Assembly (NCBI GenBank): GCA_965217705.1
Contig: CBDCJA010000002.1
Coordinates: forward strand, 3,367,960-3,431,959
DNA length: 64,000 bases
Origin: Dehalococcoidia bacterium
GTDB taxonomy: Bacteria; Chloroflexota; Dehalococcoidia; Lucifugimonadales; CATOSD01
Direction of reading: 5' to 3'
The translations under genes were made by a program, and so were the position numbers. This document shows positions 6,814 to 38,501 of this stretch, piece by piece (within the stretch, counting starts at the first letter, position 1; every line of letters begins with the position of its first letter). The notes beneath the pieces were generated by a model, which was given only the letters and a program-made list of their open reading frames with translations, had not been told where the DNA came from and made no database searches.

Positions 6814-6922
6814 GATGCGTCCTCCCTGTCCGGCGCACGCCCGCATTGGTGTCAGCCTACCATTTCTCGGAGGAACGGGGCAACGGCAGAGGCTCTGCCC
6901 TTACACCACGCCCTCACCCTAA

Positions 6923-6944
6923 CCCTCTCCCTCGAGGGAGAGGG
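6923..6944. repeat. 22-nt perfect palindrome CCCTCTCCCTCGAGGGAGAGGG (REP-like hairpin) just downstream of the comM stop
   Basis: Read directly from the sequence. It sits between the protease pair and the comM remnant. Confidence 0.6.
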
Positions 6945-13286: not shown

Positions 13287-13643
13287 TCATCGTTTCAAGT
13301 ATCTCAACAAGCTGAATCCGCAGTTCACGCGATCAACTAGCCTCTTTTTGCCACCGAAAGAAACCTTCCTTGCTCGTAGCAACTGAGTGCCCTTGCTGCT
13401 CATGCTACCGCTGTACGCCAACAGCGGGTACCAATTCAGTTCAGACGGAGAATCGACTAGAGTCGCTGCAAGATCCAATCCACCCTGAATTTGGCGGATC
13501 GCGTCAGGCACCTTAACGCTCCTGCCACCCTTCAGTTCGACAGAACAAACGACTTCCTTGTCCCGCGATGTGAAAATCAAACGATCACAGAGCTTCCCAT
13601 TCGTCCCATGCTGCTGCTGGTGCTTGTCTCCGTGAATCGTCAC
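13287..13643 (-). CDS. Hypothetical AT-richer small protein, possibly a PD-(D/E)xK fold
   Basis: CDRLIF...VCSVELKGG resembles a D...E-x-K motif. The IS630 end plus its TA duplication abuts the GTG start, leaving no SD between them. Confidence 0.4.
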   Translation of the reverse strand: MTIHGDKHQQQHGTNGKLCDRLIFTSRDKEVVCSVELKGGRSVKVPDAIRQIQGGLDLAATLVDSPSELNWYPLLAYSGSMSSKGTQLLRARKVSFGGKKRLVDRVNCGFSLLRYLKR

Positions 13644-13658
13644 TAGTACCTAGTCAAC

Positions 13659-14330
13659 TTAATTATTGGAGGGATAGAGTCGGTGCAGTTTAGTGCGAGC
13701 ATCCTGGATCGAGAAGCGCCAGTCGATGCTGGCACGATCCGTATTGCGTTCTTCTTGGAGTGCATGGACACGCCGCCTCAGGACAGTCTCATCAGGAACA
13801 CGCCGCCTCAGACAGCCGCGGCTGAACACGCTGAGCTCGATTTCGGCCATAGCCTGCCCCGTACCTGATACGGGGTTGAGCCAGCTTCCATGCTTGGGAG
13901 TGTAGTGGAACCGCAAACGTCTGGCGATGCGTCTGGCTTCGTCAGGCACAAAAGCCACATACAGGGACCCGAGTCTATGAGTGTTGAGGTTGTCGAGGAC
14001 AACCCGGACCGTGTCGGCTTCTGGATAGGCTTCGCCGACAAGCCACTTCATCTGGTGTGCAAAGTCCTGTCGTGTCCGCCGTTCCGTGATGGCCACGTGT
14101 CGGTAACCCGCAAGGGGTTCGATGAACATGAACAGGTTGCGTGTTCCCTGTCGTCGATACTCGGTGTCGTATCTCTCGGGCTGGCCGGGTCGTGCCGCAG
14201 TGGGTTCGCGCACGTCCGCCAACAGTTGAGTAGAGGACTCGTCGAAGCACACCACGGGCTGTTTGGGATCATGCGGTTCGTGGTACACGTCCAGTACCTC
14301 CTCCATGGAAGCAACGAAGTCGGCGCTCAC
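13659..14330 (-). CDS. IS630 transposase DDE part, orfB, reached from orfA by a -1 shift on A7
   Basis: A -1 shift after LKK gives NELKPWQKKEWCIPE..., then VVCFDES, VLDNLNTH and SWLN-[PVSGTGQA]-MAEIE. Confidence 0.85.
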   Translation of the reverse strand: MSADFVASMEEVLDVYHEPHDPKQPVVCFDESSTQLLADVREPTAARPGQPERYDTEYRRQGTRNLFMFIEPLAGYRHVAITERRTRQDFAHQMKWLVGEAYPEADTVRVVLDNLNTHRLGSLYVAFVPDEARRIARRLRFHYTPKHGSWLNPVSGTGQAMAEIELSVFSRGCLRRRVPDETVLRRRVHALQEERNTDRASIDWRFSIQDARTKLHRLYPSNN

Positions 14331-14812
14331 CTCCGGAATGCACCACTCTTTCTTCTGCCATGGCTTGAGTTCGTTTTTTTCAGACGTTTGCGAATGCCCT
14401 CGTGTGATATGGAGTCCACCAGACCCAGTTCCACAGCCTTGTCTGACAGCAGTCTCAACGTCCAGTGGTCGTGCCCGTCAGGTGCGCTGCTGCAAGCCAG
14501 GGCGATCAGGAGTGCCTCACCTTTCTCGTCCAGCTTGGGAGGTCTGCCAGGACGAGGCCGATCCACCACTGCGCCCTGTAGTCCTGCTTCGCAAAAGCGC
14601 CTTTTGATACGGTATACAGTACCTGGAGACACGTCCAGCGCCTCGGCTATCCGATGCACAGTCCAGCCGTCGTCAGCCTTCAGTAAGATCCGCGCCCTGG
14701 CAACCTCTCGTACGGAACTCGTGCCCCCTCGGACGAACTTCTGCAAAGACTCCCGCGCACCATCTGTCAGTTGGACCACATACTTCTCTCGACTCATTTC
14801 AGCACCCTCCAT
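14327..14812 (-). CDS. IS630 transposase N-terminal (HTH) part, orfA
   Basis: MSREKYVVQLTD...WTVHRIAEALDVSPGTVYRIKRRF. The ORF ends shortly after the A7 run at 14374-14380. Confidence 0.85.
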   Translation of the reverse strand: MEGAEMSREKYVVQLTDGARESLQKFVRGGTSSVREVARARILLKADDGWTVHRIAEALDVSPGTVYRIKRRFCEAGLQGAVVDRPRPGRPPKLDEKGEALLIALACSSAPDGHDHWTLRLLSDKAVELGLVDSISHEGIRKRLKKTNSSHGRRKSGAFRR

Positions 14813-14932
14813 ATGAAAGCGAGTTCATCAGAGTGCACCAGTTCTTATATTCATACAAAACTAGGTTGACTAGGTACTAGTGTTGTCCGTAGTTAGGGTG
14901 GTTTTCATCGCAAGTGGGGCTCCTCTAACTAA

Positions 14933-14978
14933 GGAACCGCAGGATAGTTGGTAGCTGACCTGCGGTTCCGCCTTTTCT
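14933..14978 (+). terminator. Hairpin GGAACCGCAGG/CCTGCGGTTCC followed by GCCTTTTCT
   Basis: An 11-bp perfect stem with a 15-nt loop and a T-rich tail, read directly. Confidence 0.35.
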
Positions 14979-15166
14979 ATGCCGGTTGGCTATGTGCCAA
15001 AGGCGTCCCTCCTCCGGTTTGCTTCCCTTAGTTACTCACGCATCGCCACGATACGCAACGCATATGAGCAGGAGCAACTGGTGAGTTTGCCTAGTTTTGG
15101 CTGAAAAGGGCGGGTTTGGGGCGTGTTCTCAGACGAGTAAAGAGGAGCTGGGGTTGCTAAGTGGGA

Positions 15167-15409
15167 TTAGCCTTTGCCGCGCCGGTTGCGGGCGCACTCC
15201 GCGCACTTCGCGGGCACGCGGCCAGTTGTGGCTGTGGAGAAGTCCTGCCCGCACAGCGCGCATCGAACAGAGGTTGGGCGTTGGCCGGCGTAGCCGTTAC
15301 GTCGGCGGTTCTGGCACAGGCGGCAGCGCGCCGGTAGACGGCCCAAAGGCTTGGTGTGAACCGAGCGGCCGCAAGCGCGGCACGGGATTGACGAAGGACG
15401 ACGGCGCAC
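15167..15409 (-). CDS. Small duplicated zinc-ribbon protein (two CxxC...CxxC units)
   Basis: IPCRACG...GRLPARCRLC and VRCALCG...GRVPAKCAEC. GTG start with GGTGAT upstream. Confidence 0.35.
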   Translation of the reverse strand: MRRRPSSIPCRACGRSVHTKPLGRLPARCRLCQNRRRNGYAGQRPTSVRCALCGQDFSTATTGRVPAKCAECARNRRGKG

Positions 15410-15621
15410 TTGACATCACCATAACGAGGTGTAATGAGCGCCCTCGCCGTAAACGACGAGGGCGCTCAAATTAGGAGGGGGCATAATGCGCTTCCCAGCA
15501 CACTACGCGAGGTTAGTTCTTGTAAGCCCAGCCCGTCAAGGCGGTTTGGGGTGTTTACGCGCGAGGATTTTGCATCGAGCGGAGTGGGTGGTAGGACGCC
15601 CGTCGTTTTGCATAACTCTTG

Positions 15622-15886
15622 TATACAGTACCTGGAGACACGTCCAGCGCCTCGGCTATCCGATGCACAGTCCAGCCGTCGTCAGCCTTCAGTAAGATCC
15701 GCGCCCTGGCAACCTCTCGTACGGAACTCGTGCCCCCTCGGACGAACTTCTGCAAAGACTCCCGCGCACCATCTGTCAGTTGGACCACATACTTCTCTCG
15801 ACTCATTTCAGCACCCTCCATATGAAAGCGAGTTCATTAGAGTGTACCAGTTCTTATATTCATACAAAATTAGGTTGACTAGGTAC
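15622..15886 (-). mobile_element. Truncated second IS630 copy: transposase 5' end and one IR only
   Basis: Near-identical to 14612..14877, including the IR GTTGACTAGGTAC at 15874-15886 and the flanking TA. Homology stops abruptly near 15622. Confidence 0.85.
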
Positions 15887-16002
15887 TAGGTCAGATCTGT
15901 CGAGACCTTGCAAGTTGATTTTGCAGGAGCGCTCCTGATAGGAATCGGTGAGACAGCAATTGCTATGTAGGCTGCGAATCTCTTCAGCAATTCTCTTCAC
16001 GT

Positions 16003-17553
16003 TCACTTGATGCGAATCCGTTGCAACGCTATGGCCTCATCATAGACGAGTTCAATCTCGCGGGCGAACTCATCCTCGTCAATCCCTGTCTCAGGGTCGA
16101 TCTCCAAGGGACTGATCACGCTGCCGCCTAGAGCTTGGTCGTAGTGGAACAGAAATGCGCCAATCTGCTTTTGCTGTAGACAGTCTTGAGTCTGGAATTC
16201 ATGCGCTCTAATCCAACGATTGCTTGCGTGGCTCAGGCGCAACAGGTTGTTTATCTGGGCGACGAACATATCGCTGTGGGTCGTCACAATCACTCTTATT
16301 CCCGCATTAACCAGTCTGGCGATGCCGCGGGCCATCTGCCTTTGGGCGCCAGGATGCAGGTGGGATTCGGGTTCCTCCAGAATTACGAGGTCCTCTTCGG
16401 TTACCAGATACTTTAGGAATAGCATTAGAGGAGCCAGTTCCGATACCATCGAAGAAGTATGTTCAAGCGTGAATCTACCAGGCGACGGTTCGATTCCAGT
16501 CTGTTCATACACAATCTCGGGGTAAGGCAAGCCATCTGAATCGTCCAAATCGATTCTACCTCTCAAGACTTCATCCTCAATGAAATTGATTGCGCCATCC
16601 AAATCGGCCTGCCGGGAACGTCTTCTCATGCGTTTGTCTAGCCCAATTATATGGCTTAGGAACTCGGTTGTTATCCCAGGCAAGGTTGGAATGTTGACCG
16701 GCTCTAGCCCTATACGCCTCGATTGCCGCACCAAAGACGCCGCCAACACTTTGTGGCCCTGAGCAATACCGGAACGGGCCGCTGGCAAATAAAAGACCTG
16801 AAGTGGAAGTCCGACAAAGGTCTGTTCAATCGCTGATACCACAAGCGAGTAAAGTGACTGGCGAAGCAATTCTCTCTCGTGTTCATCGTCAAGTACGCCT
16901 ACGGCGGCAAGCTCTTCAAACATGTAAGTCGGCACAGAGAACTGGGAGATCTCAAACTCCGGTACGGATCCGAGCCTGTCCATCAACTCGATGTTTAGAT
17001 GCAACTTTGGCTCGTCCTGACGTATGCTAAGCAGCGGTTTCATCCGTGCTTTTCCTCTTCGCACAAATCCTGAAGCTTCGCCGTAGGTCTGGCGCAATCG
17101 CTCGATAACATCGTCGCCAAATGAACTCAAGAGTTGCACGACTGATTGCGCAACATGCTCCTGCACTCTGCCAGGCAAGTCAGAAATCGTGATTTGGCAC
17201 GACTCCAATGCCTCTACGTCTTGCGCCCTTATCCACTCTCCGTAGGCCTCGACTACTTTTGGGGAATCCTGTGTACTATGCCTACTCCATCCAAAACCGA
17301 AGAGCCTACCGACTGCCCGCCGCTGGCGTCCAGCAAGACTTGCAGTTCGCAAGTATGGAGCTAATTCATTGTAGTGTGAAGCTGTCATAAGAGCGTAAAT
17401 GGCAGCAGCCATGAACGACTTACCAGTATTGCTGCGCCCCATGAAGATCGTTAACGGTCGTAAGTCTACAGACCCCTCAACAATGGGCCCAAAGTCCTTG
17501 GCCGACACTGTCAACATAGTTTTCTCCATATTTTCACTTGTCAGGGAATCCAA
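16003..17553 (-). CDS. ABC/SMC-like AAA ATPase (AAA_15/AAA_21-type) in an AT-richer patch
   Basis: Walker A GRSNTGKSF, Walker B/D-loop LVILEEPESHLHP and H-loop VIVTTHSD. The start may be the internal MLTV at 17517. Confidence 0.8.
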   Translation of the reverse strand: MDSLTSENMEKTMLTVSAKDFGPIVEGSVDLRPLTIFMGRSNTGKSFMAAAIYALMTASHYNELAPYLRTASLAGRQRRAVGRLFGFGWSRHSTQDSPKVVEAYGEWIRAQDVEALESCQITISDLPGRVQEHVAQSVVQLLSSFGDDVIERLRQTYGEASGFVRRGKARMKPLLSIRQDEPKLHLNIELMDRLGSVPEFEISQFSVPTYMFEELAAVGVLDDEHERELLRQSLYSLVVSAIEQTFVGLPLQVFYLPAARSGIAQGHKVLAASLVRQSRRIGLEPVNIPTLPGITTEFLSHIIGLDKRMRRRSRQADLDGAINFIEDEVLRGRIDLDDSDGLPYPEIVYEQTGIEPSPGRFTLEHTSSMVSELAPLMLFLKYLVTEEDLVILEEPESHLHPGAQRQMARGIARLVNAGIRVIVTTHSDMFVAQINNLLRLSHASNRWIRAHEFQTQDCLQQKQIGAFLFHYDQALGGSVISPLEIDPETGIDEDEFAREIELVYDEAIALQRIRIK

Positions 17554-18031
17554 TGCTCAGGAGTCTCATCGCAACAGAGGCATTACATACTTCGCAAATT
17601 CAATGATAGTGGCACTCGCGACGTAACTCAAGATGGCGCATCACGCCATATCCACCGCCTAGGCAAATGAGAAGGCCTCCTTGGAGCCAGCGGCGAGAAT
17701 GACTGTCGCCGTTCAAGGGGAGTACACCGCGGCGGCTCAGATGCTGGGGGACGCTCGAGCCTACAACATCGAGAGCCTCGAAGCTCGTAGTATTCTGGAG
17801 AGTGTGCCCACCTCCCTAAGTCAGGGAGGCATCAGGGACGAGGAGGTGTAAGCTTGCACTAGTGAGGCCACCTCGCGCTGCTTCAACCACCGGCTGTTCA
17901 CGACCAGGGAGTGGGTGCAACCGCACCGGATAGCTCCTCACTGCGCGACTCCCTGAGGGCCGTCTCACGTCCTGAGAAGGTAGACTTCTCATGTGCACAG
18001 CCATTCATGTGACGGTGTGCCCTGGCTGCCA

Positions 18032-18814
18032 TCACCTTCTGACGATCCCCTGGGGGTCTCGCCGCGACGCATTCCGGTTGAGTGCGCGGTCGAGAATGGC
18101 GAACGCTTCACGGATGCCCATGTCCTCGGCGCCGGGTACGGGCTCCTCCTCCTGCATGAGCAGAGCGTGGGCGATGAGGTCGGCCATCTGTAGCAGGTAG
18201 TCGGAGTCTGAGCTTCGGAACGCGGGTCCGCCGATGACGCGCTCGAGGGGGATGTTCCTGGTCCTCTCCCCCTCTTCCCACAGCTCGTACCGGCTGGGCA
18301 CGGGGTTGAATATCCTCAGCCTGCGGTAGGCCCTTGTGACCATCTTTTCCCTGCTCTTGTCGAAGATGAGGAATGCGTGTCGGCTCGCCGCCTTGACCGA
18401 GGTGTTGACGCGGTTGAGCAGCCGGTCGAGGCTTGTCTGTTGGTAGGCCCTCACCTCCGCCTTGCGCAGACAGACGTTGATGACCTCGACGCCGCCGATG
18501 CGGATAGCGGCGTCCTCTATGCGGCGCAGCCCGCTGGTGAAGACCTCCGCCTTCTGTCGGGGTGAGAGTGGCTCGCTGGAACCGCCGTTGCGGGTCAGTA
18601 TTCCCATTCCCGCAAGCGGGGCCTGTCCCGTACCCGAAACGGGGTCGCGGGCTTGAAGCTCCCTGTCGGTTGGGACGGCGTTTCGGTCCTGAAGCTCCCT
18701 TCTCCACTCGCAGATGTCGCCGAACAGGTCGTTCCAGCGTTCGGCGTCCACGCCCAGGGCGGATCGGGCGTGGCGGCTGGGACCCTCGGACTCGCCGACG
18801 TAGTACAAGCGCAT
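18032..18814 (-). CDS. DUF3800-family protein
   Basis: MRLYYVGESE... and C-terminal SDSDYLLQMADLIAHAL are typical of DUF3800. A GGAGG SD lies upstream of the ATG at 18814. It is the last gene of the transfer operon. Confidence 0.75.
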   Translation of the reverse strand: MRLYYVGESEGPSRHARSALGVDAERWNDLFGDICEWRRELQDRNAVPTDRELQARDPVSGTGQAPLAGMGILTRNGGSSEPLSPRQKAEVFTSGLRRIEDAAIRIGGVEVINVCLRKAEVRAYQQTSLDRLLNRVNTSVKAASRHAFLIFDKSREKMVTRAYRRLRIFNPVPSRYELWEEGERTRNIPLERVIGGPAFRSSDSDYLLQMADLIAHALLMQEEEPVPGAEDMGIREAFAILDRALNRNASRRDPQGIVRR

Positions 18815-18819
18815 GATGA

Positions 18820-20490
18820 TCAACCTCCGTTGTTCTCCGAGTAGTCGGGCAGGGCGCGGACGGGCTTCCAGCCGCCGCCCGGGGCCATCCATGCCCGTCC
18901 GAGCGGCCCCTCACGCTCCAGCAATTCTTCGTGGGAGACCAGCAATGGGACCTCGACCCCCGCGCGGTCCATCTCCTCGCCCGCTACGTGCAGGAAGTGG
19001 GTGCCGGCCAGCTCGTCATCGAAGACCACGAGAACGGCGGGTTGCGCGCCGTGGTCGTCGGTGGGCCTGTGTGAGGAGTAGTAGCGCAGGTAGGGGGCGA
19101 GCCGCTGTGCCATCGTCGAAGGGCGCACGGCGCGGCGCTCCCACTCCAGGAAGAACGGCCACGTGTTAGGTCCCCGGCGCAGGATGCCGAAGGCGTCGGC
19201 GTGTACGGAGCGCAGCCCGTCCCGATGACGGAAGTGCCTGGCGGCCCGCATGGGAGGGTCGAGTTGCGCCAGGTCCCAACCCAGTGAGCGGGACTGCGTC
19301 GCCAGCGCCGCTATGAAGGCGTGGACGGCGTCGGTGTGGTCGAGATTCCTGAGGAGCTGGCGGCTTCTCCTGCCCGTGACGTTGCGCCACGCGAGAGGAG
19401 CGCGGGGGTCGCTGCGCGACGCGCTCCAACGCCTCTTCGCCGCGCCCACGGAGGCGCGGTCTCTCCGGGCCAGCAGCGCCAGCCCGCGGTCGGTGAGGGC
19501 GTGACGGCGGCGTCCCTCGAACAAGACGCGGGTCAAAAGCCCCAACCCCTCAAGGCGCATAACGAGCTGCGACGCCCGTGACCCGGACACACCCAGCAGA
19601 CCCGCCAGATGGCCCAGGGTTATCCAGGGCCAGTCGGCGAGCAGGTCGAGGGCGCGTTTTTCGGCGGGTTTCAGCACCGTGGGCAGCAACCAGTCGGGAG
19701 ACCGCCTCCGTGGACTTCCCGGGCCGATGGGTTGGGGCGGAGTAGACCTGGTCAACGGCCTCTCGACGGCCCACTCGCCGCGCCGCCTCGCATGGGACAG
19801 CGCCTCCGACAGGTCGAGGGTCACGGACGCCGAGGGTGTGCGCCATACGCGGGCACCGTCTTCAGCGAGCGCCGCATCTTTCTCCATGGCGAGGAAGGTG
19901 ACGGCGGGCGCTCCCGTCATCAGCCTGCGGGCGTAGCGAAGCCGGACCTCGTCGGGCGAGAGCATCAGGATGCAGCCGGGCTGCGGCCCCTCCCTGAGCC
20001 GCCAGAGCCGCTTGGCGAACCCCGTCCTGTCCGACGTGGGTCCCTGCCTGACGATTCCCAGCGTCCTCCCGTTGGGGAGCGCTACGGCGGCGTCCACGGG
20101 CAGGGCGCGGTACCAGCGGAATCGAATGGGATGGGCAATGTCCGAGATCGCGGAAGCGAGGCGGTAGATGACCGCCACGGCGTCGAGCCGCGCCATCAGA
20201 AGGCGTTGCCAGTGGGCGGACACGGGACGGCTTCGAAGCGGCTCGTCCGGGTCGACGCCCTCCTCCCGGGCCAGCACGTGCAATCCCCCGGCGGTCAGGC
20301 AATAGCGGCGGGTTGCCGCCGTCAGTTCGGAGGCGTGGAGCACGGAGGCCGCCAATCCCTCGCCCTCAAGGCTCTCGACGGCCCGGTAGACCGCGCCCCT
20401 CGACCAGCCGGAGACGGAGACCATCTCCAGCCGGTCGATGAGGGGCATGTCGGACAGCAGTCTCAGCGTGTCGGCTTCGACCGACCTCAT
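18820..20490 (-). CDS. Replication-relaxation (Replic_Relax)-like protein with winged-helix regions
   Basis: Two MarR-like wHTH stretches (GAVYRAVESLEGEGL and GSRASQLVMRLEGLGLL) and a C-terminal FFLEWERR motif. ATGA overlap with the upstream coupling ATPase gene. Confidence 0.65.
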   Translation of the reverse strand: MRSVEADTLRLLSDMPLIDRLEMVSVSGWSRGAVYRAVESLEGEGLAASVLHASELTAATRRYCLTAGGLHVLAREEGVDPDEPLRSRPVSAHWQRLLMARLDAVAVIYRLASAISDIAHPIRFRWYRALPVDAAVALPNGRTLGIVRQGPTSDRTGFAKRLWRLREGPQPGCILMLSPDEVRLRYARRLMTGAPAVTFLAMEKDAALAEDGARVWRTPSASVTLDLSEALSHARRRGEWAVERPLTRSTPPQPIGPGSPRRRSPDWLLPTVLKPAEKRALDLLADWPWITLGHLAGLLGVSGSRASQLVMRLEGLGLLTRVLFEGRRRHALTDRGLALLARRDRASVGAAKRRWSASRSDPRAPLAWRNVTGRRSRQLLRNLDHTDAVHAFIAALATQSRSLGWDLAQLDPPMRAARHFRHRDGLRSVHADAFGILRRGPNTWPFFLEWERRAVRPSTMAQRLAPYLRYYSSHRPTDDHGAQPAVLVVFDDELAGTHFLHVAGEEMDRAGVEVPLLVSHEELLEREGPLGRAWMAPGGGWKPVRALPDYSENNGG

Positions 20491-23156
20491 TCCTCACCCT
20501 CCGGTTGCCCGGCCCCCCCATCGCGCCTGTCGCGCCTGCTCCGCCGGTTGCGCCGCCTGTTGTCGGGGCCGCCCGCGCCGTTGCTCGGCGGCGGGTCGTC
20601 GACCTCCAGCCGCTCCATGCCCTCGAGGCTCGACCGGTACTCATCGACCCTCCTGAGGCCCTCGGCCTCACCCGCCGCGATCTCCTCGGCCGACAATGTG
20701 TATGAGGACGTGGCCTCGCGGATATGGGCGGCCCTCTCCGGGTCTCCCGGCTCCGGCTTGCGCACCATCATCGAGAACGCGGGCAACCGGTCGGTTCCGA
20801 CCGTGGCCCGGACGTAGCAGTGGTGCACCGCAAGCGAGGTGATGTCGTCCTCGGACACCCGGTCCCTGCCCAGCTCCCACACCAACGTCCTGGCGTCGGA
20901 CCCGGACACCTGGAAGACGGCGAGGCACCCGATGTTGGCGAGGACGGTGTCGCGCATGGTGGGAGAGAGGTCGTCCAGCTTGGCCAGGCTCTGGGTGGCG
21001 AGCACGAAGGACGCCCCGAACTTGCCGAGCTCAGATAGCATCGACTCGTAGTCCACGCCCGGCATCGACTGCATCTCGTCCACCACCACCAGCGCGCCGC
21101 GCCGGCGCTCCGGCGGCAGGCCGCCCTGCTCCCGTATCACGGCGTCCACGAGGTTGAGCAGCGACGCGCCCACCAGCGCCGCCACGTCCCGGCCCGCCGT
21201 GCCCTGGGCGGTGGAGACCAAGAGGATGCCGCCCTCCTGTATGGTCCTGCGTATGTCGATAGTCGAGCGGGGCTGGCCCAGGATGGCTCGCGCCCGCTTG
21301 GAGGAGGCGTAGTAGGAGAGACGGGTCTGCACCGGGGCCAGAGCGTCGGCCCGGTACTGGCGATGCCAGCTACCGAAGTCCCTGGCCCACCACTCCAGGA
21401 GGTAGGGGTCGGATACCCTCGACAGCACGCCGGCCCGGAACTTCTGGTCCGACAGCAGCCTGAGCCCGTCCAGGATGGTGTGCTGCTCGTCGTCGGCGGT
21501 GGAGGGGTGCCCGTTGGCCTCGTGAAGCGTCTTCACGGTCTGTTCGAGTATCGACTGCATCCTGGGGCCCCACTGCTGCCACAGACCCCTGGCGACGCGC
21601 ACCACGGAGTCTGCGGTGCGGTCGCGGTCGAAGAACACGCGGGTGTCCAGCAGGTTGATGCCGGGAGCCCCCCGCTCGTCGGCTAGGTCTATGAGGCGCA
21701 CCCGGTTCACCAGGGCGTCTGGCACGTGTTCGAGCAGGCCGCCCACCAAGTCGGCGTGGGGATCGACCACGACGATGGCGTCCGAGTCCCTGCCCTCGGC
21801 CTTCTCCCGCATCTTGTGCGTCACCAGGTGGTGCATGAGGGTGGACTTGCCCATGCGGGTGCGGGCGACGTAGAGGTGGTGGCGGCGGAGAAGGTCGGCC
21901 GCGAAGTGGACCGGCCTGGGTCTGCCCGCCGTGGTGTGGCCGACGTGGGCTCCGTCCCTGACTCCCCTGGCGGAGGGAATGAGCGCCCTGGCGCCGGACC
22001 GCTCCACAAGCGGGGTCTCGTCCTGGGCGCCCGGAGGATGCCACAGGGCGGCCGCCTCACGCACACCCATGACGCTTCGGCTGCCGAACAGCCCGGGACC
22101 GGAGGGATGCAGCGCCTCGGAGTCGGGCTCGACGGAACGCACTCCACCGACCCTGAAGCGCGCCCCCGCCGGGTTGTCGTAGTGGCGATATGCCGCCGCG
22201 ACGTGCTCCAGCAGCTCTTCGGCGCGCCTGGGACCCGCGCCGGCGGGCAGTACGGCCGTGACCTGTATCTCGCCGTCGAAGGCGATGCGGGAGACCTTTT
22301 CGCGTATGAGCAGAGGGTCGTAGACGCGCCTTCTCGCCTTCTTCCAGCGGTGCCATGCCCAGCCGCCGGCGGCCAGGGCTACGGCTATGCCCGCGCCCAG
22401 CAGCACCGCCTTCCACGTCTCTCCCGCCTGCACCCACAGGTAACCCTTCAGAGTCGCCAGCGCCGCCACCCCCAGCACGGCCATCGTCACGCCCTGGTTG
22501 CGGTCGGTGCGCATCCGGCTGGTCTCCGAGTCCTGGGGTGGTGTCGCCTGGCCCCCGTGGGCCTTCTCCATGTGGGGCTGCGACCAGTCGGGTCCCAGGG
22601 AGTCGAGCATCAACCTCGCCACGACGCGCTCCCCCTCGTTGAGGTCGGACAGCGCGCCCAGGATGGCGATGAGGGGGTCCGAGCCGGGGTCGAGCAGGTC
22701 GTCGTCACGGAATGTCCTTAAGGGCACGTACTCGGGGCCGCTCGTCCTGAGCGTCATGCGCCACGCCTGTTCGCCCTCGGCCAAGCGCAGGGGATCATCC
22801 TCCGGCGACACTTCCTGCAGCTGCGCCTGGGGGTAGTGGGCGGCGATCTGGCCTCGCACCACCTGGTCGTCCAGGCAGCGGGCCATCAGCGTCACGCCGT
22901 CCGCGTCCCCGGCCAGTTCCAGGGAGAAGGGTTCGGGGACTGCGATGGACTGGAGCATGTTCTCCACGCCCAGCATGGTCCGCTCCCCCGTCCTGGGCGG
23001 GGTCACCGCCAGCAACACCGGAGGTTTTGTGTCCTCGCTGTTAAACAGCCATCCAATCGGGTTCAGTTTCATGGTCTTGCTCCTCTCTGTGTCTGAGTCG
23101 TCACACGATTCGTGCTTTCGGCGCTCCGGTTCCTGTTGACAATCAAAGTCGTTCAT
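20487..23156 (-). CDS. Type IV secretion coupling protein-like ATPase (TraD/VirD4/FtsK-HerA class)
   Basis: Walker A ARTRMGKSTLM and Walker B ALVVVDEMQS, with two N-terminal TM segments. I chose the ATG at 23156 (GAGGAGGA SD) over the maximal ORF start at 23288. Confidence 0.8.
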   Translation of the reverse strand: MNDFDCQQEPERRKHESCDDSDTERSKTMKLNPIGWLFNSEDTKPPVLLAVTPPRTGERTMLGVENMLQSIAVPEPFSLELAGDADGVTLMARCLDDQVVRGQIAAHYPQAQLQEVSPEDDPLRLAEGEQAWRMTLRTSGPEYVPLRTFRDDDLLDPGSDPLIAILGALSDLNEGERVVARLMLDSLGPDWSQPHMEKAHGGQATPPQDSETSRMRTDRNQGVTMAVLGVAALATLKGYLWVQAGETWKAVLLGAGIAVALAAGGWAWHRWKKARRRVYDPLLIREKVSRIAFDGEIQVTAVLPAGAGPRRAEELLEHVAAAYRHYDNPAGARFRVGGVRSVEPDSEALHPSGPGLFGSRSVMGVREAAALWHPPGAQDETPLVERSGARALIPSARGVRDGAHVGHTTAGRPRPVHFAADLLRRHHLYVARTRMGKSTLMHHLVTHKMREKAEGRDSDAIVVVDPHADLVGGLLEHVPDALVNRVRLIDLADERGAPGINLLDTRVFFDRDRTADSVVRVARGLWQQWGPRMQSILEQTVKTLHEANGHPSTADDEQHTILDGLRLLSDQKFRAGVLSRVSDPYLLEWWARDFGSWHRQYRADALAPVQTRLSYYASSKRARAILGQPRSTIDIRRTIQEGGILLVSTAQGTAGRDVAALVGASLLNLVDAVIREQGGLPPERRRGALVVVDEMQSMPGVDYESMLSELGKFGASFVLATQSLAKLDDLSPTMRDTVLANIGCLAVFQVSGSDARTLVWELGRDRVSEDDITSLAVHHCYVRATVGTDRLPAFSMMVRKPEPGDPERAAHIREATSSYTLSAEEIAAGEAEGLRRVDEYRSSLEGMERLEVDDPPPSNGAGGPDNRRRNRRSRRDRRDGGAGQPEGEE

Positions 23157-23253
23157 CGATGTCCTCCTCACTTCTATCGATCTCTCCATGTCCCGACGCC
23201 ATTTCACTCGGCCGGTCCGTGGGCACCTCTGGCGTGATGACGTAGGGCAGGCC

Positions 23254-23664
23254 CTAATGCGACGGCAGATCGTTCCAGACCGTGCCACCGCTCGTGGCCA
23301 GCGTCAGGCACATGAGCCTGAACAGATCCCTCACGTCTTCATCCGACAGGCCCGCGAGTTCCGATGACTCGCCCGCTTGCTCCCACATCAGCCGCAGCCC
23401 GCTTGGACCGAACGATCCATACGCCTCACGGCAGTCGTCATAGAGTTCCGGGCTATAACTTGCAATGTGCCCGCTGCCCCACGAATGGCTCGGAGCTCCT
23501 GACGGCCCCTGTGGACCCGCTGGACCTTGAGGACCCACCGGTCCCAGTGGCCCTATCGGCCCAGGGGGACCCATCGGCCCCTGCAACCCTGCCTCGCCAC
23601 AACCTCCAATTAGCACTAGCGACAGGAGCGCCATCCCTGCCCAGATTCCAAATTGTGCTTTCAT
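23254..23664 (-). CDS. Lipoprotein with a collagen-like G-X-Y repeat
   Basis: Lipobox LVLIGGC followed by [33 protein letters not shown], about 10 G-X-Y triplets (nt 23494-23592). Confidence 0.65.
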
Positions 23665-23734
23665 GTTCCTTTCCTTCCTGACAAGTTATCCACATCGTCA
23701 CTGATTCCCTTGGGTCCCCTGGATGCGTGTCTTT

Positions 23735-25990
23735 CTACGCGTGCCCACCCGGTCTCCACTCGATCACCGCCGTCTCCTCCGGGGTGGCCTCGATGCGCAC
23801 CGGGAAGCGGTTGCCTCGCGCCAGCAGCAGCCCGTCCCCACGCGGGCACGACAGCAGCCACCGCTGCAGGTCCTGGGGCAGGTCGAAGGCGTCGCCAACG
23901 GTGCTTATGGCCGCGGCGTCCTGTTGGAGCAGCAGCTTGAATGCGGCGTTCTGAAGCAGGGCGCGGCCCGAGTGGCCGGTGATAGCGCGGGAGGAGTCTT
24001 CGGACAGCAGGTCCTGGACGTCCTGGGTAATGAACTGCAGCCCCAGCCGGTGCTTGCGGGCGCGCTTGGCCATGCTCACCATGAACGCCGCGCCCTCCGG
24101 GTGCTGCATGATCGACCACACCTCGTCCACGACCAGCAGCCGGGGCTTGGGGTCCTGTGCCGCCGCGGCCCACACGGTCTCGGTGCAGACCATCGCCGCC
24201 GCAGGGCGAAGCTCCGGCTCAAGCAGCCGCAGGTCGAAGACGGTGACCGGCGCCTCGTTGCCGAGCAGGTCGTCGCCCTCGTCCGAGAGCAGGTGGCGGA
24301 GGCTGCCGGTGGCGAAGGGCCGCAGCAGCAGAGCGAGACCGGCGTCGCCGTCCCGGTCGTTCCTGAGGTAGTCGTAAAAGTCCCTGAAGCCGGTGCGGTC
24401 CCTGGGTGTGGCGTAATAGCCCGCCAGTGCGTGGTCGAGGGCGGCCCTTCGCTCCGCGCTCAGCCGCTCTCCCACCATCACCTCGATGAGCCGTCTCAGG
24501 CTGCCGATGCGCTGGAGCAACTCCTCGGAGTCGCCCCGGTCTATGACGAAGGGGTTCATGCCCTGGCCGGGGACGCCGGGGGAGAGCACCCTGCCTCCGG
24601 CAGCCCTTGCCATGTCGGCGTACTCGCCCTCCGGGTCGATGACGTAGGCGGTCACGCCCCGGCACAGGCCCCTGAGCACGCCGAGCTTGGTGGCGAAGGA
24701 CTTTCCCGAGCCTGACCTCGCCAGCACGGCGGTGTTTGCGTTCAGGTGCGTGCCGTCCCACGGGTCGTAGACCACGGGGGAGCATGAGCGCACGTCGATG
24801 CCGTAGAGGGTGCCGGAGCGGGTGTCGAGGTCGGGCGGCGAGAAGGGAAAGAGCCTCGCGATGCTGGACGTGTCCAGGCTGCGCCACTCGGCCACGGCGT
24901 TCAGGGCCAGGGGCAGCGTGGACAGCAGCCCCTCGCGCTGCCGGAAGGCCAGGTCGTCCAGCTTGCCCAGGGTCGCGGCGAAGTGGCCCCTCGCACGCTG
25001 TGTCATCTCGGCGAGCGACGCCTCGTCCTTCGCGTACAGGGTCACCGACAGCGAGGCGTGGAAGAGCCTCTCCCGGCCCCGCTGCACCTCGTCGCGGAGC
25101 CGGGTCACGTCCTCCAGGGCTATCTCCGCCTCCGGCGACATGGTGCGGCCGCGCTTCAGCGACAGGCTCTGTGCGGACTCGAAGCGCACCTTCTGCCACT
25201 CCAGCGTCCTGGCCGCCTGCTCCGCCGGTATCGGCCCCAGGTGGACGGCCAGGTCCATGGGCGCTCCGGCGCTCATCAGCCCCTGCAGGAACCCGGGGGC
25301 CAGGGAGCGGGGCCAGCGGCCCAGGTGCAGCGATCGGATGAGGGTCTCTCCCACCCTGATGTGACGGCGGTGGATCGCCACCTCGACCCCTGTGTCCTCG
25401 TCGTACTCAGCCGGAGACCCGCCCAGGGCCGCCGCGACGAATAGCATCCGCAGTTGGCGTCCTCTGAGTCGGTGGACCGACAGCCCTGCCCTCGCCAGCA
25501 GGCCCCTGAGCTCGTCGATGCGTGCGTGCTCGCACACGGCGTAGAAGCGCCGGTCGAGTACGCCGTCTCGGGACTCGAGGTCGGTGAGGAGCCTGCGCAG
25601 AGACTCCGCCGCTGCTCTCGTCTGAGGGGGCAAGCTGTCGGGCTGGCTGTCCCGGAGGCTATCCCTCAGCCCGCCCAGGCGCGGGGGGTGCTGCCTGATT
25701 AGCAACTGGATGGGGAAGTCGAGAGCGTTGAGAGTCCCCGCGAAGGCTCCCAGCTTCGGCTCGTCGATCTCCAGGCCCATCACCTCGCAGACCCCGAGCT
25801 TCACGCCGTCCAGGCGCACCGGCCCGTCTTCCTCCAGGCGCCAGACCATGAAGAACAGCGGCAGGTCCGGCGGCGGCCTGGGAGCAGGGGACCTATTGGC
25901 TTCGACGGCCGAAGTGTCTTGCGGGGAGTTTGTCTCCTCTGGCGGTGTTGCTCCTCCGCGCCTCGTGTTCTTTCTGAAAAGCTTCTTCAA
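23735..25990 (-). CDS. VirB4/TraC-type conjugation ATPase
   Basis: Walker A ARSGSGKSFATK and Walker B RLLVVDEVWSIM. Size and operon position fit VirB4. Confidence 0.85.
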   Translation of the reverse strand: MKKLFRKNTRRGGATPPEETNSPQDTSAVEANRSPAPRPPPDLPLFFMVWRLEEDGPVRLDGVKLGVCEVMGLEIDEPKLGAFAGTLNALDFPIQLLIRQHPPRLGGLRDSLRDSQPDSLPPQTRAAAESLRRLLTDLESRDGVLDRRFYAVCEHARIDELRGLLARAGLSVHRLRGRQLRMLFVAAALGGSPAEYDEDTGVEVAIHRRHIRVGETLIRSLHLGRWPRSLAPGFLQGLMSAGAPMDLAVHLGPIPAEQAARTLEWQKVRFESAQSLSLKRGRTMSPEAEIALEDVTRLRDEVQRGRERLFHASLSVTLYAKDEASLAEMTQRARGHFAATLGKLDDLAFRQREGLLSTLPLALNAVAEWRSLDTSSIARLFPFSPPDLDTRSGTLYGIDVRSCSPVVYDPWDGTHLNANTAVLARSGSGKSFATKLGVLRGLCRGVTAYVIDPEGEYADMARAAGGRVLSPGVPGQGMNPFVIDRGDSEELLQRIGSLRRLIEVMVGERLSAERRAALDHALAGYYATPRDRTGFRDFYDYLRNDRDGDAGLALLLRPFATGSLRHLLSDEGDDLLGNEAPVTVFDLRLLEPELRPAAAMVCTETVWAAAAQDPKPRLLVVDEVWSIMQHPEGAAFMVSMAKRARKHRLGLQFITQDVQDLLSEDSSRAITGHSGRALLQNAAFKLLLQQDAAAISTVGDAFDLPQDLQRWLLSCPRGDGLLLARGNRFPVRIEATPEETAVIEWRPGGHA

Positions 25991-26009
25991 CGGTGTCTCC
26001 TCTACAGGT

Positions 26010-26321
26010 CTATGGTGTTGGGAACTCGACCAGGCCGCTTCGCAGCAGCGCTGCGACCGCCTTGGCCGAGAGCGCCAGCACGAGGCCGACGATAGCCAGC
26101 GCCACAGCGCTCTTGGCCCTGCCGCCCCCGCGCTCCTCGCCTCCCTCAGCCATCAGGACGAAGCCCGCCCACACGATGGCGAAGAAGCACAGGCCGGCGG
26201 CTGCGAACGACATCGCCGTGAGCGCCCGGTCGAAGGCGGCCAGCATCGCCTGCTCCTCCGGCGAGGCCCCCATGAGAACGAGGGCCACGCCGGCGAGAGG
26301 CAGCAGGATCACTCTTCGCAT
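26010..26321 (-). CDS. Small membrane protein (signal peptide plus two TM; VirB2/TrbC-like candidate)
   Basis: MRRVILLPLAGVALVLMG... The start overlaps the upstream stop (TGATG). It lies within the longer spurious ORF 26010..26591. Confidence 0.55.
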   Translation of the reverse strand: MRRVILLPLAGVALVLMGASPEEQAMLAAFDRALTAMSFAAAGLCFFAIVWAGFVLMAEGGEERGGGRAKSAVALAIVGLVLALSAKAVAALLRSGLVEFPTP

Positions 26322-28069
26322 CACTTGGGCGGCTCCCACCCCTGCGGGCTGCCCGCGGGCTCCTGCTCGCCCAGCTGCTCGGCGGGCTCGGGCTCCGGAA
26401 GAAAGAGCAACCGGAAGGGTGCGTCGGACCCCACGGCGGACTCCATGGCCAGGCTCTCGCGCCTGGTTCGGCCCACTGGCTCCCGCTCCACAACCTCGGC
26501 CTCGACGCGCTCGGGGTGTACGATGGTGAGCGTCACATCCCGGTCGATCCATTCCCCGGGCACCGACAGCGTGGCCGAGATGGTGTACCAACGGGTCGTG
26601 CCGTCGGGGTTGGCCACCTCGACCGTCTCGCTGACGGACTCACTTGTCCCGGGCCTGTACAGGCTCACCGTCTCGGTGCGCTTCTCGACCCGCTCAGGGT
26701 GGTGGGTCAACCTCACCAGCGGCGGTATGGCGATGCGCAGCGACGCCTCGAGGTCGGCCTCGATCGTCACTGAGTGGACAGCCTCGCCCGAACCCACGCC
26801 GAGCCGGAAGCGGGTCAGACCGTTGGGCACGAACGCGACGCTGGCCTCCGACTCCCCCGACGTGACGGATACGGTCCCCGTGATGGCCGTGACCTCCGCG
26901 TCCATGAGAGCGGTCTCTGTGACGCTCGCGTGTCCGGCCACGGTCTGTAGCTCGACCGGGTGCTCGACGTGGGAGACGCATTTCGACTCGACCGCGCCGC
27001 TGACCGTGCGGGGCGTCCAGCCAAGGGTGACCAGCCTCAGGTCGCACAGCTCGCCCTCGACCTCCGGCAGCGGGTAGGGGATCTTCTCGTGCGTGATCGT
27101 GACCGCCCCGGCCTGTCCAAGAGCCTGCCCCGTGCCTGATACGGGGGAGTCCACCCACGAGAAGGTGAAGGAGGGCATTGGCCCGTCCAGGGGCAGGGAG
27201 TAGTCGATGCGCTCCCCCTGGTCCAGGCTCGCTGAACCCCAGAACCGCGGCGAGCCGCCCTGCGGTCCGCCGAACGCCCGCACACGCAGGTCGATGTCCG
27301 TGGCGGCCCTGAGCGTGATCTGGGCGCGGTCGCCCGAGACGGTGAGCGCCTCGACGAACACCCTGCGTCCCTCCACTGGTTCTGCGAGCTCGAAGCCGAT
27401 CTCGTCCTCCCAGTACTTGTGGGCAAGCGCCGCCTGGGGTGCTGCCGCGACCGCCGCCACCAACACGGCTGCCGCGATTGCCAGGAGGCCCCTCGGGCGT
27501 TTCCCTCGTTGGGACTTTCGGACCTCGTCGCCGTTGATCTTGTCCATTTCGGGCGCGCCGCGCCCGCGCCTGCCGAGCCGGCCCCACGGGCCGAAGGGCC
27601 TTCTCCCATTCTGGCGCTCGGCCTCCACGCGCCGCTTCTTCCTGCGCAGCCTGCGCCGCGCCCTGCGCGCCACCAGTCGCACCCCGCGGAGACCCCGCCG
27701 AGCGCGGCGCGCCACAAGGCGCAACGGGCCTGGGCCGGCCTCCGTGGCCTGCGCCGTCGCGGGCGGCTCGCCCCGCACCAGCTGGGACACGGTCCCTGTG
27801 TGAAGCCGCGCCCCCAGCCGGTATCTCAGCAGGTCGGCGGCGACCAGCGGCAGCCGCCGCCCGCCAACCTTCCCAACGATCATCACAATGCCGGCGAGGG
27901 CGAACAGCGCCGCCAGCGCGATCCTCAACTCCGTGGGCCCGGGGACGTACCGGTACGCGCCGTAGGACAGCGCGCACACCGCCGTCACCGCCACTATCTG
28001 GGGGAACGTGAACCACAGCAGCACCCTGTCCTCTGCCTGCACGTGGGTCGGAACCTCGTGCTCTCTCAT
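26321..28069 (-). CDS. PrgI-like N-terminal membrane domain fused to a large extracytoplasmic beta-rich region
   Basis: AEDRVLLWFTFPQIVAVTAVCALSYGAY... resembles PrgI-family proteins found upstream of VirB4 in monoderm-type systems. Confidence 0.6.
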   Translation of the reverse strand: MREHEVPTHVQAEDRVLLWFTFPQIVAVTAVCALSYGAYRYVPGPTELRIALAALFALAGIVMIVGKVGGRRLPLVAADLLRYRLGARLHTGTVSQLVRGEPPATAQATEAGPGPLRLVARRARRGLRGVRLVARRARRRLRRKKRRVEAERQNGRRPFGPWGRLGRRGRGAPEMDKINGDEVRKSQRGKRPRGLLAIAAAVLVAAVAAAPQAALAHKYWEDEIGFELAEPVEGRRVFVEALTVSGDRAQITLRAATDIDLRVRAFGGPQGGSPRFWGSASLDQGERIDYSLPLDGPMPSFTFSWVDSPVSGTGQALGQAGAVTITHEKIPYPLPEVEGELCDLRLVTLGWTPRTVSGAVESKCVSHVEHPVELQTVAGHASVTETALMDAEVTAITGTVSVTSGESEASVAFVPNGLTRFRLGVGSGEAVHSVTIEADLEASLRIAIPPLVRLTHHPERVEKRTETVSLYRPGTSESVSETVEVANPDGTTRWYTISATLSVPGEWIDRDVTLTIVHPERVEAEVVEREPVGRTRRESLAMESAVGSDAPFRLLFLPEPEPAEQLGEQEPAGSPQGWEPPK

Positions 28070-38298: not shown

Positions 38299-38404
38299 GC
38301 ACCCCACGTTGCTAGGCCAACCCGCCTACTGCGCAGCACAAATTCACGTGGCATCCTTCGATGCTGCGCTTCATCCCCCACTACCTACACATAACGACAC
38401 TGGA

Positions 38405-38438
38405 GAGCCGGATGCGGTGAAAGCCGCACGTCCGGTTC
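38405..38438 (+). ncRNA. Group II intron domain V
   Basis: GAGCCGGATGCGGTGAAAGCCGCACGTCCGGTTC is a 34-nt hairpin with the canonical GAGC...GTTC ends and a GAAA loop. Confidence 0.85.
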
Positions 38439-38501
38439 GGAGGGGGGCCGACGGAAAAGTGCTCCGGTAACACGGGGTAACTCGCCGGCGGCCTACCCTA
38501 C

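Follow-up and report, generated by a model that had tools for sequence, protein, structure and literature searches.

A 24-nt hairpin repeat inserted into unrelated genes of a Dehalococcoidia genome, one of a dispersed family of probable miniature mobile repeats

Exploring a 64,000-nt stretch of a Dehalococcoidia genome (contig CBDCJA010000002.1, positions 3,367,960 to 3,431,959; hereafter the window), we found one 24-nt sequence inside three unrelated genes, each 24-mer being very probably a copy of a mobile mini-hairpin repeat. The copies are insertions with exact boundaries and without target-site duplication; they belong to a family whose hairpin is kept by compensatory changes, which inserts at a short target motif, recurs at the same sites and nests in other repeats. 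Taken as a whole, the observations are probably explained by a very small, non-autonomous miniature mobile repeat, similar to repetitive extragenic palindromes (REPs) and small dispersed repeats (SDRs), that is moved in trans. The sequence-only reading had placed the 24-mer in three long minus-strand open reading frames (ORFs) and had it translated as PVSGTGQA; the sequences are exactly as given there, with one mismatch in copy 3 and four in copy 2, and the octapeptide is read in the frame of all three hosts. The copies and their host genes, including one associated with a type IV secretion system (T4SS), are as follows.

Element copy 1: 13851-13874, minus strand; plus-strand text AGCCTGCCCCGTACCTGATACGGG, coding strand CCCGTATCAGGTACGGGGCAGGCT; intact hairpin; in IS630 orfB, between SWLN and MAEIE
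Element copy 2: 18620-18643, minus strand; CCCGTTTCGGGTACGGGACAGGCC; decayed, 4 mismatches; in a DUF3800 gene, between (Q/H)A(R/C)D and (P/L)LAG
Element copy 3: 27122-27145, minus strand; CCCGTATCAGGCACGGGGCAGGCT; 1 mismatch, in the stem; in the gene of a 582-aa T4SS-associated protein, between SWVDS and LGQAG
Host of copy 1: 13642-14880, minus strand; IS630-family insertion sequence of ~1.24 kb, with orfA at 14327-14812 (helix-turn-helix) and orfB at 13659-14330 (DDE_3)
Host of copy 2: 18032-18814, minus strand; DUF3800 gene, 260 aa from the start used by ortholog P0241 (ORF 18032-18892)
Host of copy 3: 26321-28069, minus strand; 582-aa membrane protein of a conjugative T4SS cluster, with a weak PrgI match

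Three insertions of an exact 24-nt unit

Matches to the 24-mer are in excess over chance: 100 dinucleotide-preserving shuffles gave an expectation of 0 for matches with up to three mismatches, and copies 1 and 3 were found at this level. A scan of the window at up to seven mismatches added copy 2 (at four) and no further credible copy. The sequence-only reading took the 24-mer for an insertion and not for ancestral sequence, and comparison with close and distant orthologs bears this out, revealing exactly eight extra residues in all three hosts. The IS630 homolog P0002, which is 98% identical, lacks exactly these eight residues. On the DNA level, the window IS630 and the copy at L001, the locus of P0002, share 96% identity over 1.2 kb, interrupted by one 24-nt gap; the empty site of L001 reads GGA AGC TGG CTC AAC ^ ATG GCC (^ marks the insertion point) and the filled site of the window CTC AAC [CCC GTA TCA GGT ACG GGG CAG GCT] ATG GCC. 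The boundaries of copy 1 are not shiftable and zero bases are doubled, i.e. target-site duplication is absent. The insert does split a conserved transposase block, as proposed from the sequence: it lies between SWLN and MAEIE, just before an invariant glutamate, and the Pfam DDE_3 match ends there. Among the orthologs of the T4SS protein, 118 of 120 are without exactly the eight residues and read SWEDT^LGQAG, the insert being present only in the window and in the near-twin P0121. Similarly, 109 of 121 aligned DUF3800 sequences lack exactly eight residues and read HACD^LLAGRG, with the empty DNA site of L126 reading GAT^CTG. The other 12 carry the insert at the same site, some of them decayed to TVSATGQA, PVSAKGQA or PGTRTGQA; because the insert is thus present at one site in about 10% of the aligned sequences, the DUF3800 insertion is either older or recurrent.

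The three insertions differ in apparent age. Copy 1 appears younger than its 96-98% identical empty relative, copy 3 is common to the window and its 97%-identical relative L128, whose version keeps a perfect stem (GGT), and copy 2 belongs to a lineage in which the insert is shared at 88% protein identity. The quality of the fold (good in copy 1, mismatched in copy 3, lost in copy 2) agrees with these ages. The proposed hairpin CCCCGTA-loop-TACGGGG stands for copy 1, with a DNA hairpin energy of -7.6 kcal/mol (z -3.3 and -4.5), is weakened in copy 3 by an A.C mismatch and does not hold for copy 2, which no longer folds. The window IS630 with its insert recurs in L252 at 98.8% identity with 0 gaps and, given that this copy sits in a different genomic context, the insert-bearing IS630 has moved, whether through the transposase that it encodes or in trans.

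A dispersed family: hairpin, target sites and reading frames

The unit consists of a G+C-rich stem of 6-7 bp, a 5-nt loop (TCRRG) and a 7-nt 3' tail (GCAGGCT), 24 nt in all. Scanning a species-representative genome collection with the pattern CCCGNNTCNNGNACGGGNCAGGC yielded at least 117 loci, and a looser pattern with three stem pairs freed yielded at least 120 loci in metagenomes; overall, more than 260 copies were recovered. Both scans were restricted by their pattern, which sets the loop TC..G and the tail GGGGCAGGCT, so that the conservation of these parts is only partly informative. At the free positions, the copies of the genome scan are nearly uniform among the matches listed (CCCGTATC[A/G]AGTACGGGGCAGGCT). 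The stems of the metagenome superfamily differ yet stay complementary: CCCGGA/TCCGGG is the commonest there, CCCGTA/TACGGG is the type of the window, and CCCGCA/TGCGGG, CCCGTG/CACGGG, CCCTG/CAGGG and CCCCGA/TCGGGG occur as well. Across 53 distinct sequences, 90.6% of the stem cells are paired versus 77.4±1.3 in shuffles, and 36 double-sided stem changes, a number reached in 0 of 500 shuffles, were counted versus 13.5±2.8, while slid controls are at most 60% paired. Because the stem variants are compensated relative to both shuffles and slid controls, the hairpin is under selection. Rfam gave no match on the element, either in the window at the gathering threshold or in eight copy-rich loci at E<=0.1.

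Among the matches listed, the hosts are mostly metagenome-assembled genomes (MAGs) of Dehalococcoidia/Chloroflexota, many of them from long reads; other host phyla include Proteobacteria, Desulfobacterota and Bacteroidota, and the sole host near the cyanobacteria is one Gastranaerophilales MAG. Further hosts are two Pseudoxanthomonas isolates, Syntrophaceae/Smithella, Thermodesulfobacteriota, Nitrosomonadales, Methylococcales, Saprospiraceae, Chitinophagaceae, Brocadiaceae, Paceibacterota and Entotheonella; of these, Syntrophaceae, Nitrosomonadales, Saprospiraceae, Brocadiaceae and Paceibacterota are represented by MAGs. A plasmid database search detected the element in plasmids of Sinorhizobium and Palleronia and showed it to be rare overall in plasmids of cultured bacteria, the one annotated match being a transposase fragment. 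The element is seen in short-read as well as long-read assemblies and in cultured isolates.

Most copies lie outside genes: 200 of 217 non-redundant copies among the matches listed are not confidently inside a gene, and the three of the window are exceptions. In a target logo of 112 non-redundant sites, position -1 is C in 91%, while +1 is C and +2 is T in 71% each, i.e. C^(C/T)T, which in genes takes the form RAC^NTG (GAC^CTG, AAC^ATG, AAC^TTG and GAC^GTG, for example). On contig CBDCTY010000002.1 the copies among the matches listed have mixed orientations. Many copies, in both orientations, lie within CGTC-type REP hairpins (CGTC-ATTCCCGC-loop-GCGGGAAT-CCA), a type described by Di Nocera et al. 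(2013, PMC3733652). In about 20 loci among the matches listed the copy stands between CACC and CTAA of a hairpin repeat, CCCTCACC[element]CTAACCCTCTCCC, for which an unoccupied example is available:

Unoccupied hairpin repeat: 6911-6944, plus strand; CCCTCACC^CTAACCCTCTCCC-tcga-GGGAGAGGG

Copies also occur within a repeat that recurs in the metagenome sample (AAAACCGGTATCCAC^TTTTCGGGATCATGC), and others are nested in their own relatives (L012, L028, L037 and L109). Two ideas on targeting were rejected. Obligatory insertion into hairpin loops is striking by eye in the REP-hosted copies and is not significant once redundant flanks are taken out (25% versus 20%, see below). Recognition of the target through the GCAGGCT tail by pairing or homology is at odds with the flanks, which show no tail-like or tail-complementary enrichment.

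Identical sites are used more than once. At SWLN^MAEIE, a hot spot of IS630, 33 of 121 homologs carry an 8-aa insert, in at least five lineages and with different element variants. The present family accounts for 28 of the 33 (PVSGTGQA, PVSSTGQA, PASSTGQA, PESSTGQA, PAPSTGQA and PVSSTGRA), and the remaining 5 belong to a second, unrelated 24-nt family, CCTGTCCTGAGCnnnGyCGAAGGG, read as PVLSxxEG; it is exemplified by L251:715-738 and by L003 at ~636-658, where the insert has 23 nt and frameshifts the transposase. Other positions of IS630 are used as well, namely VLDN^LNTH (L020) and MEDVLD^LYAEP (L002). Several filled IS630 and DUF3800 sequences have empty relatives that are nearer to them than any further filled sequence is; for DUF3800, the closest empty relatives of filled sequences show 91-96% identity and the closest filled ones only 75-89%. 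Since filled sequences are nearer to empty than to filled relatives, such sites have apparently been hit repeatedly, or the inserts lost precisely, or both. Elsewhere, the second 24-nt family forms tandem arrays inside ORFs (L065:5414-5560 and, on the minus strand, L115 at ~5512-5560).

For genic copies we used our own gene calls together with a codon-usage score on the flanks with the element removed. Outside the window, 17 of 217 non-redundant well-formed copies among the matches listed are confidently genic, distributed as follows.

Antisense, phase 0: 7 copies, read SLPRT[R/G]YG; two put a TGA into the host frame
Sense, phase 0: 5 copies, read PVSSTGQA
Antisense, phase 2: 2 copies, read RACPVLDTG
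Sense, phase 1: 2 copies, read PRIKYGAG
Sense, phase 2: 1 copy, read PYQVRGRL

Orientation is thus unbiased (8 sense versus 9 antisense) and phase 0 is over-represented (12 of 17), and genic copies are read in all the frames that are free of stops. The sequence-only reading had regarded the shared orientation and frame of the three window copies as a property of the element. This does not hold, given that other frames and the antisense orientation are used elsewhere, and the same observation rules out transcription-coupled or frame-specific insertion. The frame is always kept because 24 is a multiple of three, and the bias to phase 0 arises because, in high-GC genomes, cutting behind a C favours the third position of codons. 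In antisense phase 0, the loops TCAAG and TCAGG give a TGA while the TCGGG loop of copy 2 gives no stop; copies 1 and 3, which have the TCAGG loop, stand in sense orientation because antisense phase 0 would hold this TGA. Target preference plus purifying selection against stops therefore explains the frame and orientation that the three window copies share.

By eye, the genic hosts include a valyl-tRNA synthetase (L024), a UvrD/RecB-like helicase (L030), a hybrid histidine kinase (L026), a primase-like protein (L077) and transposases of the IS4, IS66 and IS630 types. The synthetase, of a Pseudoxanthomonas MAG, contains the element (L024:3754-3777) together with other repeat-like residues and reads ...LAGEGARRACPVPDTGADGG...; the helicase, of Syntrophaceae, contains several REP-like inserts plus the element (L030:1436-1459), here read PRIKYGAG. 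Both cases recall that REPs were reported to be in excess in genes for tRNA synthetases and for DNA repair (PMC3733652). At L059:6516-6539 and L114:1982-2005, two antisense phase-0 copies whose loop is TCAAG bring an in-frame TGA into the gene that the codon score takes for the real one, and the host genes are apparently truncated. In L007, L065, L089 and L115 (Dehalococcoidia MAGs CBDCTY and CBDHCU), proteins of 420-530 aa have a C-terminal half made almost entirely of translated mini-repeats (VIPA..., SLPRTRYG, PVLSTVEG, PELVEG and SPLTGEGWGEG); real genes seem to accumulate mini-repeats as low-complexity linkers.

Possible routes of movement and known small repeats

In the explanation that we propose, the exact 24-nt unit inserts after C, usually before (C/T)T, without target duplication. 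Since codons of high-GC genomes mostly have the C that precedes the cut at their third position, insertions tend toward codon boundaries, and in sense orientation they read PVS(S/G)TGQA, a stop-free, small and polar octapeptide. An enzyme that recognizes the folded 24-nt strand would move the element in trans; the best analogy is the HUH/Y1 transposase of IS200/IS605 elements and of REP-associated tyrosine transposases (RAYTs), which cuts and rejoins single-stranded DNA seamlessly; the GCAGGCT tail would take the role of the REP tag. That an HUH/Y1-type enzyme acts on the folded single strand is the tentative step of this proposal and is drawn from analogy. Single-stranded hairpins are the substrate of IS200/IS605 and RAYT enzymes, whose action produces no duplication; TnpA_REP of E. 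coli, which requires no more than C^T at the cut, binds the tagged REP hairpin and cuts single-stranded DNA wherever a C^T is close by (PMC3333891, PMC6006769).

Several results weigh against this proposal. No HUH/RAYT-like or other recurrent enzyme gene was found near the copies in ~1.3 Mb of loci: a RAYT-like motif of the NPVRAGLV type was not found in 8-kb windows around copies, and clustering of 2979 nearby ORFs revealed no recurrent enzyme family within 2 kb. The GTAG or CGTC tag of described REPs is absent. Among the matches listed, an inverted partner within 150 nt was seen for 0 of 269 copies and a direct partner for 8. Nor is the flanking motif long enough to account for identical sites being used repeatedly. 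Finally, insertion into hairpin loops is not enriched once redundant flanks are removed (25% versus 20% at control C^YT sites), and for this reason many REP-plus-element composites may have spread as units.

The family shares properties with several known repeats and matches none of them in all respects. REP elements with GTAG or CGTC tags and their RAYT/TnpA_REP transposases (PMC3733652, PMC3333891) likewise form short G+C-rich stem-loops with a conserved unpaired tag or tail on one side and compensated stem subfamilies, are mostly intergenic with occasional in-frame genic copies (tRNA synthetase, helicase, transposases), and lack target duplication; the C^T-like cut-site preference recalls TnpA_REP. 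Unlike REPs, the element has GCAGGCT as its tag (AGCCTGC on the other strand) and its copies are singletons, whereas the presumed mobile unit of REPs is the doublet; no RAYT gene is seen nearby, the element often sits inside CGTC-type REPs, and the same sequence type occurs in several phyla. The sequence-only reading had also pointed to the palindromic elements of Rickettsia (RPEs), and the likeness is real with respect to palindromic repeats that are inserted in frame into unrelated protein-coding genes, are absent from orthologs and are tolerated. Its remark that the present unit is far smaller is true of RPE-1 (100-150 bp); RPE-4 and RPE-6 are short CGTC-type REPs that, like intragenic GTAG/CGTC REPs and RPE-1, have already been described (PMC3733652). 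RPEs are confined to Rickettsia, whereas the 24-nt element has another tag and occurs mainly in Chloroflexota and environmental bacteria.

In size, the nearest relatives are the SDRs: Elhai and colleagues (2008) are said to have described SDR1-8 as compensated hairpins of 21-27 nt, nested in repeats and in their own copies, and to have proposed them as the smallest mobile elements. The 24-nt size, the hairpin with compensatory changes and the nesting in other repeats and own copies are alike. In contrast to SDRs, the present element lies, among the matches listed, almost wholly outside cyanobacteria, and it has clean pairs of empty and filled sites together with a defined target motif and genic copies in frame; it is set apart from SDR1-8 by description, not by sequence. 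SDRs are reported only from Nostocaceae (PMC5861425). IS200/IS605 elements such as IS608 and ISDra2 resemble the family in seamless insertion 3' of a short target, the absence of duplication and recognition of a subterminal hairpin. For elements of the IS608 type, insertion takes place 3' of a tetranucleotide and makes no duplication, and excision is precise; precise excision, if it occurs here, would also explain the patchy presence at identical sites. IS200/IS605 elements differ in having two hairpin ends and TnpA, with or without TnpB, whereas here the element is nothing more than one 24-nt hairpin, with no transposase gene seen linked to it. MITEs, which stands for miniature inverted-repeat transposable elements, likewise are non-autonomous, multi-copy and sometimes in frame within genes; they have terminal inverted repeats and target-site duplications and generally exceed 100 bp, none of which applies to the 24-nt element. 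An IS630 excision footprint or a MITE was accordingly ruled out, the target not being TA and both terminal inverted repeats and duplication being absent.

Among the alternatives, spread through RNA, in which the hairpin would be transcribed and a small RNA copy of it reverse-transcribed or reverse-spliced into new sites, is unlikely. Such a route was reportedly proposed by Elhai and colleagues (2008) for the 21-27 nt repeats of cyanobacteria, and the size, the compensated hairpin, the G.U-compatible stem variants and the nesting fit the SDR description. Moreover, full group II introns encode a reverse transcriptase, and the window has an Rfam match to group II intron domains V/VI only (38403-38501, plus strand, 67.5 bits). 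However, genic copies are about equally sense and antisense, most copies are intergenic, and neither a reverse transcriptase recurring among the 2979 nearby ORFs nor any sign of an RNA intermediate was seen. Quite unlikely is a process without a dedicated enzyme, i.e. template switching at hairpins during replication or repair, or gene conversion between repeats, which would make the same-site inserts of IS630 and DUF3800 products of recombination between mobile-element alleles and not new insertions. Copies of insertion sequences and genes of integrative conjugative elements do recombine often, allele exchange or precise loss could give the same-site pattern, and the composite REP-plus-element units have apparently been amplified as blocks. 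What this process leaves unexplained are base-identical boundaries at more than 200 unrelated sites with microhomology never beyond 1-2 nt and flanks free of tail-related enrichment, as well as the occurrence of different variants and of a second 24-nt family at the same IS630 site, for which allele exchange does not account.

The insert might also never reach the protein, either through removal from the mRNA or because the ribosome bypasses it, as with the mobile GC-rich 'byp' inserts of yeast mitochondria; the coding frame would then be irrelevant. We consider this very improbable. It would suit the occurrence, in at least two genomic contexts, of an IS630 copy with the insert a few residues from an invariant glutamate, and a whole insert-bearing IS630 lineage is widespread, as fits a harmless insert; but copies of insertion sequences can be mobilized in trans, take-off and landing codons do not match (AAC...ATG, TCC...CTT, GAC...CCG), and the old DUF3800 copies decay with the frame kept open, as expected if they are translated. 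Barely credible, finally, and refuted by the results named below, is the reading of the 24-mer as a peptide motif with a function, be it ancestral or convergent, or as an artefact of assembly. The shared position in ~10% of the aligned DUF3800 sequences is what might be cited for it; against it stand near-identical and distant orthologs that lack exactly 24 nt or 8 aa, the non-coding location of most copies, the occurrence in isolates and in assemblies of both read types, and the compensated nature of the sequence variation.

Returning to a mobile repeat moved in trans, the family has neither the REP tag nor the doublet arrangement and its description was not found in the searchable literature, where the strings of the 24-mer and of its commonest variant appear in no paper and keywords yield only general work on REPs, MITEs and SDRs. 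How single REP-like hairpins move is unsettled. The model in general use relies on inverted doublets plus a RAYT enzyme, and the sole elements of 21-27 nt claimed so far were confined to one cyanobacterial lineage. With base-exact filled and empty sites, a defined target motif, recurrent hot spots, a distribution across phyla and recent activity in long-read Chloroflexota genomes, the present family makes the question testable. A further extension, which we regard as doubtful, would have the 24-nt hairpins currently active, among the smallest mobile elements known and moved seamlessly by a widely distributed machinery for single-strand nucleic acid that also moves the second 24-nt family; if so, this machinery would 'write' cassettes of a fixed eight codons into the genes of several bacterial phyla. 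The inserts make 8-residue indels and odd peptides (PVSSTGQA, PRIKYGAG, PYQVRGRL, SLPRTRYG and ACPVLDTG) that litter the proteomes predicted for environmental bacteria and can lead alignment, domain calling and gene prediction astray.

Genomic setting of the window

The host families were assigned from Pfam (DDE_3 for orfB, DUF3800, and a sub-threshold PrgI match). In the 97%-identical relative L128, the gene of the T4SS protein is flanked by the genes of a T4SS pilin and of a VirB4/TraC ATPase, and genes of a VirD4-like coupling protein and a relaxase-type protein follow; from this gene order we conclude that the window region is an integrative conjugative element of a Chloroflexota genome. 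The closest genome matches and named orthologs among the matches listed are Dehalococcoidia/Chloroflexota MAGs. A predicted structure of the insert-bearing IS630 DDE domain has a mean pLDDT of 56, with residues 147-181 below 50, and is too poor for placing the insert.

About 1 kb from the full IS630 copy, a 269-nt partial duplicate of its 5' end (15621-15889 versus 14612-14880, 99% identical) takes in the first 67 codons of orfA. Beside the group II intron match, the window is ~550 nt longer than L128 (37476-38396 of the window versus 205-574 of L128). A very large, internally repetitive coding region at 45400-59800, with many diverged direct repeats at spacings from 72 to ~1500 nt, resembles a giant repeat-domain surface protein and has no relation to the 24-nt element.

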